Source: an uncultured Clostridia bacterium (GTDB lineage Bacteria; Bacillota; Clostridia; TANB77; CAG-508). From it: a stretch of 64,000 nucleotides of DNA. The stretch covers positions 31 through 64,030 of the forward strand of contig CALXCG010000001.1 of assembly GCA_944386745.1 (NCBI GenBank), given 5' to 3'. The position numbers and the translations under genes were made by a program. The notes beneath the pieces are model-generated. The model searched no databases. It was given only the letters and a program-made list of their open reading frames with translations, and was not told the DNA's origin. Of the stretch, positions 37,223 to 38,620 are shown in pieces (the first letter of the stretch is position 1; each line of letters begins with the position of its first letter).

Positions 37223-38620
37223 ATGAAAGAAAGTAGAAAATATGTAAACACAAACAAATTTAAGTATTTAAAAGGAGCAAGAGGTATTACATTAATAGCA
37301 CTTGTTATTACTATTATCGTACTATTAATATTAGCTGCAGTATCAATAGCAACATTAACAGGAGAGAATGGGGTATTAACAAGAGCAAATGATGCAAAAA
37401 TGGAAACAGAAAAAGTAACTGCAAGAGAAAAAGTAGAAATAGAAGTATTAGGAAGTTATAGAAGAGATGGAAATTTAGATTATGACTTATTGGAAGACAA
37501 TTTAAATAATATAGACGGAATACAAAATGTGCCAAGTCCAATAACAAAAGATAGCTTTCCAATAGAAGTAATAGTAGAGGGATATAATGTAATAATAGAT
37601 GATGAGGGAAATGTATCAGTAGGAGATAATGGACAAGGTGAAGGAGAAACAACTACATTACCATCAACAGAAGATACGAAACCATTTTTGCTAAGTGGAT
37701 CCCAAATAATAGAAGATGATTTGAGCAGAGGAGTAGTAATAAAGGACAGTAATGGTAATGAATGGACATGGATAGAGGTACCAAAGAGTATATATACGAA
37801 TACAGAGTATAATGGAGGATCAGCACCAAGTAGTTCAGAAGATTATGAAAAGATAGAAAGTATAATGCAAAATTATGCAAGCACATATAGAGAAGCCGGT
37901 TTTGAAGATTCATGGTATTCAGAAGAACAACATGGATTTGCAAGTAGTACAGAATATGAAAATTGGAAAAAAGGGATGTTAAAAAGTGTATATGAAAATG
38001 GTGGATTTTATATAGGAAAGTATGAGGCAGGAACATTTGATAATCCGGTAACGTCAAATGATAATAAAGGAAGAGAAGCAGTGATACAAGAAGGAGCATA
38101 TCCATATAACTATGTAACATGCAAACAAGCGCAAGAAATATCAGAAGGATTAGCAACAGGAGGAAGAACAGGTAGTTTAATGTTTGGAATACAATGGGAC
38201 TTAGTGTTAAAATATATAGAAAATAAGAGCGGAAAGACGATATCAGAGTTAAAAGAAGATAGTAAGAACTGGGGAAACTATAAAGATGCAACATTTGAAG
38301 TAACAAAAGGAGCGTATTCAATAGACTATGGTGCTACTTATACACAAGTAAATAAAACATACTTAAAACAAGAATTAGAGGTGTTTTTTACGACAGGAGC
38401 CACAGAAAGAAATAGTACATTAAATATTTATGATTTGGCAGGAAATGTATTTGAATGGACTTTGGAAAAAAGTATTAGCAATAATGAACATACCGATTTA
38501 TGTGCATACAGAGGAGGTTATTCTTATGTCGTGGGTTCTGCTTGCCCAGCTTTTAATCGCAGGAATGATAATACGTCTTTTAATAACTATGGTATTGGTT
38601 TTCGTCCCGCTTTATGGTAA
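37223..38620 (+). CDS. Pilin-like N-terminal helix fused to an FGE/SUMF1-like (formylglycine-generating-enzyme-fold) domain
   Basis: The N-terminus KYLKGARGITLIALVITIIVLLILAAVSIA is prepilin-like, G then hydrophobic, but with Ala in place of Glu at +5. The C-terminus has GNVFEWT...CAYRGGYSYVVGSACPAFNRRNDNTSFNNYGIGFRPAL, typical of FGE-sulfatase-fold proteins. Confidence 0.55.
   Translation: MKESRKYVNTNKFKYLKGARGITLIALVITIIVLLILAAVSIATLTGENGVLTRANDAKMETEKVTAREKVEIEVLGSYRRDGNLDYDLLEDNLNNIDGIQNVPSPITKDSFPIEVIVEGYNVIIDDEGNVSVGDNGQGEGETTTLPSTEDTKPFLLSGSQIIEDDLSRGVVIKDSNGNEWTWIEVPKSIYTNTEYNGGSAPSSSEDYEKIESIMQNYASTYREAGFEDSWYSEEQHGFASSTEYENWKKGMLKSVYENGGFYIGKYEAGTFDNPVTSNDNKGREAVIQEGAYPYNYVTCKQAQEISEGLATGGRTGSLMFGIQWDLVLKYIENKSGKTISELKEDSKNWGNYKDATFEVTKGAYSIDYGATYTQVNKTYLKQELEVFFTTGATERNSTLNIYDLAGNVFEWTLEKSISNNEHTDLCAYRGGYSYVVGSACPAFNRRNDNTSFNNYGIGFRPALW

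Follow-up and report, generated by a model that had tools for sequence, protein, structure and literature searches.

A probable, stand-alone variable protein of diversity-generating retroelement type with a pilin-like N-terminal module in an uncultured Clostridia bacterium

We analysed a stretch of 64,000 nucleotides from an uncultured Clostridia bacterium (GenBank assembly GCA_944386745.1, contig CALXCG010000001.1, positions 31 to 64,030; hereafter the window) and, within it, a gene of 465 amino acids (aa) on the forward strand. We propose that this gene probably encodes a cell-surface protein of the variable type made by diversity-generating retroelements (DGRs), predicted to bind a ligand, standing alone and apparently frozen, presented by a pilin-like module and not acting as an enzyme. 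The last ~45 residues form a variable region (VR), homologues, among them one at locus L022, lie in DGR cassettes, and members of the family far from any cassette are rewritten in trans. A preliminary description of the gene, made from the sequence alone, had given the open reading frame (ORF) correctly and had read it as a prepilin-like N-terminus fused to a formylglycine-generating enzyme (FGE)/SUMF1-fold domain; it missed the DGR, which is the main point. The features of the gene and its flanks are as follows.

37207..37211, + strand: Shine-Dalgarno sequence GGAGG, read from the sequence, 11 nt 5' of the ATG
37223..38620, + strand: complete gene, 465 aa, ATG start, stand-alone member of a DGR variable-protein family (ORF)
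37223..37285, + strand: basic hydrophilic leader, aa 1-21, ending Lys17..Arg20-Gly21, with a putative prepilin-peptidase site after Gly21
37286..37627, + strand: pilin-like N-terminal module, aa 22-135, with hydrophobic ITLIALVITIIVLLILAAVSIA, a long helix (aa 21-76) and a small beta-sheet (alignment and model)
37640..38617, + strand: C-type-lectin/FGE-type fold domain, aa 140-465, predicted to bind a ligand (AlphaFold model, Foldseek)
38465..38611, + strand: VR, limits approximate, from homology to the VR and template pairs of L022, L057, L080, L081 and L084
~38519-38596, + strand: hypervariable VR core after RGG; the VR terminates in the invariant GGT TTT CGT CCC GCT
38609-38623, + strand: potential 6-bp hairpin GCTTTA-TGG-TAAAGC across the stop codon (fold prediction)
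38621..38646, + strand: post-stop element AGCTAGATTCTATGGAAAACGAGAAT, related to, but diverged from, the motif found after active VRs of the family
38666..38700, + strand: probable intrinsic terminator, a 13-bp AT-rich stem and then a T-run (ViennaRNA fold of the 3' flank), missed by a consensus scan because the scan demands at least 3 G-C pairs

A hypervariable C-terminus on a lectin-type fold

Homologues number at least 7,799 among 90%-identity clusters, and almost all of them come from metagenome-assembled genomes (MAGs) of uncultured Clostridium or Clostridia in gut metagenomes. Where their sources name them, they are called 'type II secretion system protein', 'ComGC', 'PilE' or 'FGE + PilE', and otherwise 'hypothetical'. 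The family alignment is strongly conserved as far as ...NIYDLAGN..EWTLE; downstream, over the last ~45 residues, an invariant scaffold (RGG..GS..P..R..TS..FRPALW) is interleaved with hypervariable positions that differ even among otherwise near-identical proteins. The window protein has the same scaffold. Its C-terminus reads ...GNVFEWTLEKSISNNEHTDLCAYRGGYSYVVGSACPAFNRRNDNTSFNNYGIGFRPALW and contains the motifs GNVFEWT, RGGYSY and NNYGIGFRPALW, so that GNVFEWT and the GFRPAL ending of the preliminary description are accurate and its RGGSY is in fact RGGYSY.

Residues ~140-465 were modelled with AlphaFold from a 70-sequence alignment (predicted local distance difference test, pLDDT, 92; predicted template modelling score 0.92), and in this model they adopt the C-type-lectin/FGE-type fold of solved DGR variable proteins. 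Foldseek against the PDB placed two such proteins on top, TaqVP (5vf4, E=2.7e-6) and TvpA (2y3c, E=6e-5), with probabilities of 0.98-1.0; FGE, pFGE, EgtB, OvoA and PvdO (~1e-3) and Mtd (6.8e-3) ranked lower. The structure prediction that the preliminary description had proposed as a check thus supports the FGE/SUMF1-type fold, which extends over ~326 residues and not only the last 200 as had been suggested.

Both Pfam families proposed for the same purpose were matched below their cut-offs on the single sequence: PF03781 at E=0.0029 (17.8 bits vs a cut-off of 23.3, aa 375-461 only) and N_methyl (PF07963 / IPR012902) at E=0.22 (11.6 bits vs 21.2). PF03781 is also matched by 18 of 66 homologues (best 1.2e-6) and N_methyl by 15 of 66, and the sub-threshold matches of the window protein thus exceed chance. 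The InterPro entry for the FGE/SUMF domain is IPR005532.

DGR cassettes beside related genes

Our survey covered 79 loci from species-representative genomes together with further contigs. Seven related loci (L022, L049, L057, L080, L081, L084 and L292) have DGR cassettes with all or most parts, arranged as target, often a MutS_I-domain protein, bAvd, a reverse transcriptase (RT) of ~340 aa with YMDD, a template repeat (TR) directly after the RT, and an RT-14 RNA. At L084 and L057 an Avd-like ORF of 120-128 aa comes after the target, then an RT of 336-341 aa with YMDD and, directly behind the RT, a copy of the 3' end of the target. The family genes of L022, L049, L080 and L081 likewise have RT and Avd homologues beside them, and precomputed Pfam matches at L292 comprise MutS_I, bAvd (PF22296) and RVT_1. 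L022 is a member of the same subfamily as the window protein, to which it is 52% identical.

Mismatches between VR and TR fall predominantly on TR adenines: 20/21 in L057, 23/26 in L080, 25/28 in L022, 15/16 in the core (~112 nt) of L084, and 28 of 37 substitutions in L081, where flanks were included in the alignment. The L292 TR (10237-10367) is 82% identical to its cis VR over 131 nt, with mismatches unsorted by base. VRs end in ...GCTTTA and TRs at that site read ...GCTCTAAT. After the VR, a motif of the form (G/A)ACTGAAYNCT...AAAACGAAAC is found in its strict form in 13/71 family genes. These include targets in cis (L022, L057, L084 and L292) and varying copies at remote sites (L001, L008 and L290); in L081 a variant of the motif overlaps the stop codon.

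About 140 nt on the 3' side of each TR are conserved across cassettes, in L057 and L084 and as a homologous block in L022, L080, L081 and L292. An Rfam scan of this block at two loci, L057 and L084, identified RT-14 RNA (RF02921) directly 3' of the TR in both (3581-3731 and 3078-3224, respectively; 105-114 bits, full length), a position suggesting that RT-14 is a priming or spacer part of the DGR RNA. Our literature search found no paper connecting RT-14 with DGRs.

A small protein of 146-187 aa lies beside the Avd-RT pair in six cassette loci. At L292 it consists of a MutS_I domain only, and six homologous ORFs of ~148 aa recur across loci; this may be the accessory gene named MSL in DGR surveys. 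Its positions include the following.

L292, 8404-8844: small protein, MutS_I domain only
L057, 1488-1991: small protein beside Avd and RT
L080, ~2334: small protein beside Avd and RT
L084, 3544-4107, - strand: small protein beside Avd and RT

L080 shows a further peculiarity. Compared with the CGTGGAGGC of relatives, its TR (4398-4534) and VR (1938-2074) both have one inserted base (CGTGGGCGGT), which shifts the reading frame of the target ORF and gives it the ending ...RVVRGR; it seems that a frameshift in the TR was transferred to the target by copying. The target ORF of L075 (~10681-10823) has the same ending, an observation made at the protein level.

Rewriting in trans and decay of cassettes

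Many genomes carry several paralogues of the family, some in tandem and most of them distant from any RT. VRs are scrambled within the 90%-identity clusters P0067, the window's subfamily, and P0131, which is L057-like, and on contigs of 1.37-1.58 Mb neither RT nor Avd was found within 10 kb of a P0067-cluster member. The same holds for L001, and L290 likewise has no RT within 10 kb; these two and L008 are orthologues of 91-93% DNA identity outside the VR. Among these three, variable sites are distributed over codon positions 1/2/3 as 17/20/4 in the VR region (55 codons) vs 42/37/67 in the remainder of the gene; of the 20 VR codons with changes at positions 1-2, 18 have a fixed third base, and 33 of the 55 VR-region codons are identical in DNA in all three. 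This pattern indicates that the remote copies were rewritten from a conserved, AAY-rich template, and since copies with no RT inside 10 kb show it, targeting in trans occurs. The trans-acting cassette was not located, as none of the 120 best RT homologues lies on a Mb-scale contig with varying copies. In MAG ABMPRH_46_1 the cis copy alone fits the known TR; the seven remote paralogues have many mismatches to it at C, G and T.

Fragments of RTs (30-230 aa, 35-84% identity to family RTs) were found just 3' of family genes at three loci, with neither a TR nor RT-14 left near them; at L303, IS3 and IS21 elements separate the target from the fragments. RT fragments beside targets imply that cassettes decay, leaving orphan targets.

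L016, 11535-11708: DGR-type RT fragment
L044, 11727-11825: DGR-type RT fragment
L303, 13984-14653: DGR-type RT fragments

Two observations concern copy numbers. Among loci L006-L084, many family genes lie at contig ends or a few hundred bases from them, which fits assembly breaks at hypervariable VRs or at paralogous repeats, and copy numbers in MAGs are therefore probably underestimated. Separately, three members on three contigs of one NCBI MAG (P0244, P0246 and P0247, same 90%-identity cluster) have the identical VR RGGYYINGGSSSPASYRDNDTTTGSGYIVCFRPALW, for which possible explanations are a recent duplication, co-conversion from a single cDNA or a bin of mixed strains.

A template signature in a nearly static window VR

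The VR of the window gene bears the codon signature of an AAY-rich template. Third positions in its core are C or T in 23 of 27 codons, vs 32% elsewhere in the gene (p=2e-8), and 10 of its 13 four-fold codons end in C or T, vs 13% elsewhere in the gene, where 77% end in A (p=2e-7). The bias at four-fold codons means that amino-acid composition or selection cannot account for the signature. Family VRs are poor in K/E/Q/M/W (3% vs 23%), and the window VR retains five unmutated Asn codons. The post-stop element, ~65-70% identical by eye to the L022-type element, may have a role in target recognition.

The window copy itself is nearly static among sampled strains. Its 90% cluster comprises four sequence variants on about 12 contigs with 10 variable columns, of which one lies in the VR (Val437/Ala437), and the exact window protein is present on 8 contigs from several samples with its neighbours unchanged.

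DGR parts were sought from about -47 to +35 kb around the gene, ~82 kb in all. No repeat of the gene's 3' end (that is, a TR) and no paralogue was found in the 64-kb window, no RT or Avd by tblastn of the window with two RTs and two Avds as queries, no RT-14 RNA (RF02921) in an Rfam scan of the window, and no RT or Avd in the 10 kb past either window edge on longer contigs of the same species. Scoring of seven TR regions against 75 VRs yielded none that fits the window VR, with 21-33 non-A mismatches to the four TRs that aligned over at least 100 nt; the pattern used to recognise VRs in this scoring missed some true cis pairs (L080, L292), which were then checked by hand.

Nor was a TR for the window VR found in IMG/VR. 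A scan of viral sequences for a pattern allowing each VR base or A returned poly-A only; such a pattern discriminates poorly because poly-A runs satisfy it. One candidate template, L300 (IMGVR_UViG_3300018412_000025), was rejected as an unrelated, GC-rich phage DGR. It is the sole IMG/VR match to the 18-mer ATTGGTTTTCGTCCCGCT, the invariant 3' scaffold that codes for IGFRPA, and contains it in both its VR and its TR (4630-4647 and 5186-5203, - strand), so the end of lectin-fold VRs is highly conserved even in DNA.

A pilin-like N-terminal module

The N-terminus of the window protein, MKESRKYVNTNKFKYLKGARG/ITLIALVITIIVLLILAAVSIATLTGENG (the slash marks the putative cleavage site), has a leader of 21 aa ending in KGARG, Gly21 at -1 and Ala at +5. 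The family pattern of Lys/Arg, Gly at -1, ITLIALVITIIVLLILAG and Ala at +5 is almost invariant. Among 72 family N-termini, with a median leader of 15 aa, position -1 is Gly in 72/72; -2 is Lys in 49, Asn in 9 and Arg in 8; +1 is Ile in 68/72, +2 Thr in 72/72 and +3 Leu in 71/72. About 45 N-terminal residues are almost invariant even across subfamilies that are ~30% identical overall. The GITLIALVITIIVLLILAG module (aa 1-140) recurs in 19,005 representative clusters at E<=0.001, in proteins of 100-612 aa with varied C-terminal modules such as LamG-like repeats and beta-helix. Short module proteins of 125-240 aa could be major pilins, but many are visibly truncated ORFs.

By these features the module is pilin-like and its start resembles a class III (prepilin) signal, as the preliminary description had recognised, including the replacement of Glu by Ala at +5, and the N-terminus did not emerge as a plain signal peptide for signal peptidase I. 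N_methyl is matched at E<=0.1 by 31/34 modules (best 6e-4; 11.6-14 bits). A module profile searched against PDB sequences gave PilA-N (0.006), MshA (0.01), PilA (0.08) and PilA5 (0.2), as well as a flagellin, an archaellin and, at E=1, two DNA ligase 4 chains. In a full-length model (overall pLDDT 64), the module consists of a helix at aa 21-76 and three short strands, at pLDDT 75-89.

We lean slightly towards a module that is cleaved after Gly21 and presented on a filament or at its tip, in the manner of modular pilins, and that would otherwise serve as a membrane anchor. Several results weigh against filament display. Position +5 is Ala in 69 and Ser in 3 of the 72 N-termini and never Glu; N_methyl matches stay below the Pfam cut-off throughout the family; a fold search with the full-length model returned noise only, leaving the head domain without a structural match; and in the 10 kb around family genes at about 80 loci the only recurrent features are housekeeping synteny and DGR parts, with no gene for a prepilin peptidase, an assembly ATPase or a platform protein among them. 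Because two defining features failed (Glu+5 and the Pfam threshold), membership in the type IV pilin family is not established.

The missing Glu+5, the sub-threshold N_methyl matches and the lack of recurrent assembly genes favour the competing view, to which we give a little under an even chance, that the N-terminus either is a mere signal-anchor, as in type II membrane proteins, or serves as a signal peptide for signal peptidase I, and would tether the protein to the membrane with neither prepilin processing nor a filament involved. Glu+5 is the hallmark of assembling pilins, the window protein has no NCBIfam match, no canonical prepilin with Glu+5 was found in 1.23 Mb of related DNA, and in the literature most cellular DGR targets are described simply as membrane-anchored (PMC8144416). 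Against a passive anchor stands the near-invariance of ~45 residues over thousands of clusters, which is atypical of such a segment and typical of pilin alpha1-N. Gly at -1, Lys/Arg at -2, Thr+2 and Leu+3 fit a peptidase site, and the better PDB sequence matches are mostly type IV filament subunits. Tip-located minor pseudopilins such as GspK likewise lack Glu5. One N-terminal module is also combined here with many different C-terminal modules, which is a trait of modular pilins (PMC8179133).

Proposed origin of the window VR and alternative readings

We propose that a DGR wrote the window VR at a relatively recent time and that the VR has since become fixed, through loss of the retroelement or because the retroelement rarely acts on this copy. 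The remnants of RTs beside other family members, showing that cassettes do decay, are in line with loss. The product would be an adhesin or receptor of fixed specificity, displayed through the conserved type IV-pilin-like N-terminal module. Three limits count against this account: no cognate TR for the window VR was found in the searches made, so that its authorship by a DGR rests on homology and codon signature; the search for DGR parts extended over ~82 kb of genome; and stasis was read from consensus assemblies, which can mask VR variation within a population.

It is unlikely, in our judgement, that the window copy is still an active remote target, rewritten in trans at a low rate or conditionally by a DGR elsewhere in the genome or on a prophage. 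Rewriting in trans is known in the family, the AAY-template signature is sharp with five Asn codons unmutated, a related post-stop element is kept, and the lone VR difference (Val437/Ala437) falls at a hypervariable position. Yet the VR is the same but for that codon in the four variants, and with 9 variable columns outside it the VR is no more variable than the rest of the gene; all contigs assemble through it. The post-stop element has diverged from the version at active copies, and no available TR fits at non-A positions, a misfit shared by the seven remote paralogues of ABMPRH_46_1 with respect to their known TR.

We regard as very improbable an origin by ordinary diversifying selection and point mutation with no retroelement in the window lineage. 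The missing TR would agree with it, but selection on amino acids cannot yield the bias at four-fold codons, and the depletion of K/E/Q/M/W in family VRs, the orthologues that vary at codon positions 1-2 with position 3 fixed and the canonical cassettes within the same subfamily all argue for a retroelement.

FGE catalysis requires a conserved pair of cysteines. Alignments of 22 or 66 homologues show no invariant or nearly invariant Cys in the C-terminal domain, and it is the hypervariable VR that aligns with the C-terminus of FGE/SUMF2; for these two reasons the window domain is not an FGE-type enzyme, although it shares the fold. A displayed enzyme of the FGE/SUMF1/EgtB type, performing formylglycine generation or related oxidative chemistry and possibly serving a tad-like pilus, is thus scarcely credible, even though the fold is real and SUMF2 is the best match of the C-terminal family profile among PDB sequences, since DGR variable proteins outscore all FGE-fold enzymes structurally, hypervariability is incompatible with a catalytic site, no gene for a sulfatase or a related substrate lies nearby and the tad-like genes do not accompany the family at the 79 other loci.

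Comparison with known systems

TaqVP of Thermus aquaticus, TvpA of Treponema denticola and Mtd of a Bordetella phage (PDB 1yu2) share with the window family the fold, a VR at the extreme C-terminus, the conserved G-F-R-x-x-L end strand, AAY-templated positions and, in the family's cassettes, RT, Avd and TR with adenine-specific mutagenesis. Sequence identity to them is just 11-15%. The window copy also differs in its pilin-like N-terminus, where TvpA is a lipoprotein and Mtd belongs to a phage tail fibre, in its static VR and in having no cassette within ~82 kb. The likeness to FGE/SUMF1, SUMF2, EgtB and PvdO (PF03781) is structural and not functional: fold and weak similarity across GN..EWT...RGG....GFR are shared, whereas the window family has no conserved catalytic cysteines and a hypervariable counterpart of the active site, and the window protein scores below the Pfam gathering threshold.

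Cellular DGR targets usually begin with a transmembrane (TM) or signal segment, continue with a region for binding or a stalk and end in a variable C-type lectin, and those that are membrane-anchored are enriched in Firmicutes and the gut (Roux et al. 2021, Nat Commun, PMC8144416). The window protein has this modular layout; the survey describes no pilin-type N-terminus. Modular type IV pilins, exemplified by PilB and PilC of Streptococcus sanguinis (Raynaud et al. 2021, PMC8179133), likewise join one N-terminal module to many C-terminal modules, and the architecture IPR012902-IPR005532 is catalogued there for 8 proteins (Dataset S1). The preliminary description had thought a displayed FGE-fold protein unusual; it is in fact the standard layout of cellular DGR targets and an architecture listed among modular pilins. 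PilB and PilC carry Glu5 in canonical class III signals and are encoded in a pil operon that includes PilD, unlike the window family with its Ala5, sub-threshold motif and lack of pilus genes nearby.

The modular-pilin work drew no link to DGRs (PMC8179133), one survey lists a G-type pilin domain among the rare domains that hold VRs (PMC11661182), and our literature search found no paper pairing DGR with 'prepilin'. The DGR-diversified type V pilus adhesins of Bacteroides (bioRxiv 10.1101/2024.11.15.621889) are the nearest conceptual parallel, in that a DGR of gut bacteria varies the adhesive part of a pilus. They differ in pilus class, phylum and anchoring chemistry, and the pilus association of the window family is one that we infer.

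A DGR variable protein is a known kind of system, and the only aspect that may be new is the pilin-like display module, with its putative function. A tentative and, on present evidence, doubtful extension is that the family as a whole represents DGR-diversified modular type IV pilins, in which a Glu5-less module is cleaved after Gly-1 and a lectin-fold adhesin, programmable by the retroelement, sits at the tip of an uncharacterised filament of uncultured gut Clostridia. If so, stand-alone copies would be 'archived' specificities, together a repertoire of paralogues, and the family would be a type IV counterpart in Firmicutes of the DGR-diversified type V pilus adhesins of Bacteroides. Should the Glu5-less module confer filament display, the family would join DGRs to type IV filaments in monoderm gut bacteria.

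The family, which is very large in gut metagenomes, mixes cis targets, trans targets and apparently frozen copies, sometimes several per genome, and so offers a natural system for studying how DGR diversity is fixed into paralogue repertoires and how cassettes decay. For annotation, such genes should be flagged as homologues of DGR variable proteins. The outcome replaces a displayed sulfatase-maturing enzyme with a predicted programmable ligand-binding family.

The tad-like locus and other features of the window

The window has a G+C content of ~27%, and the gene lies in it between an M20 peptidase gene and metG, amid housekeeping genes. A divergent tad-like locus spans ~4291-16321 (+), ~21 kb from the gene, close to the 20 kb of the preliminary description, which had proposed to check orthologues for co-occurrence with tad-like loci. 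We rejected this locus as an assembly system for the window protein: its genes do not accompany family genes at any of 79 other loci, and the pilin-like ORFs of the locus start with MENASKALIMAG and are of a different class. Most of its proteins have no Pfam match, and a prepilin peptidase is not recognisable among them. Its parts are listed here.

~4291-16321, + strand, tad-like locus: a 369-aa membrane protein and two ParA/CbiA-like proteins
7017-8987, + strand: 656-aa ATPase with a weak T2SSE match
After the ATPase: two polytopic membrane proteins
11304, 12120, 13141 and 13618, + strand: four paralogous pilin-like ORFs starting MENASKALIMAG/MENAADALQMAA
14339: protein with a weak DUF4320 match; also a 459-aa protein with an N-terminal TM segment

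A 6S (SsrS) RNA (RF00013, 86.4 bits, full length) lies in the intergenic region 5' of the M20 peptidase gene, at 35211-35403 (+), and is the sole Rfam match at gathering level across the window. Immediately upstream of the gene, a Lys-rich ORF of 76 aa (36986-37216, +) is annotated as a gene in public assemblies. It has no Pfam match, occupies the divergent promoter region that separates the M20 peptidase gene from the gene described here, and is probably not a gene. Finally, two overlapping ORFs (16683-17378 and 17323-17913, +) each match Peptidase_S55 (SpoIVB); the pair resembles a spoIVB gene broken by a split or a frameshift, and another assembly of the species shows the same split.

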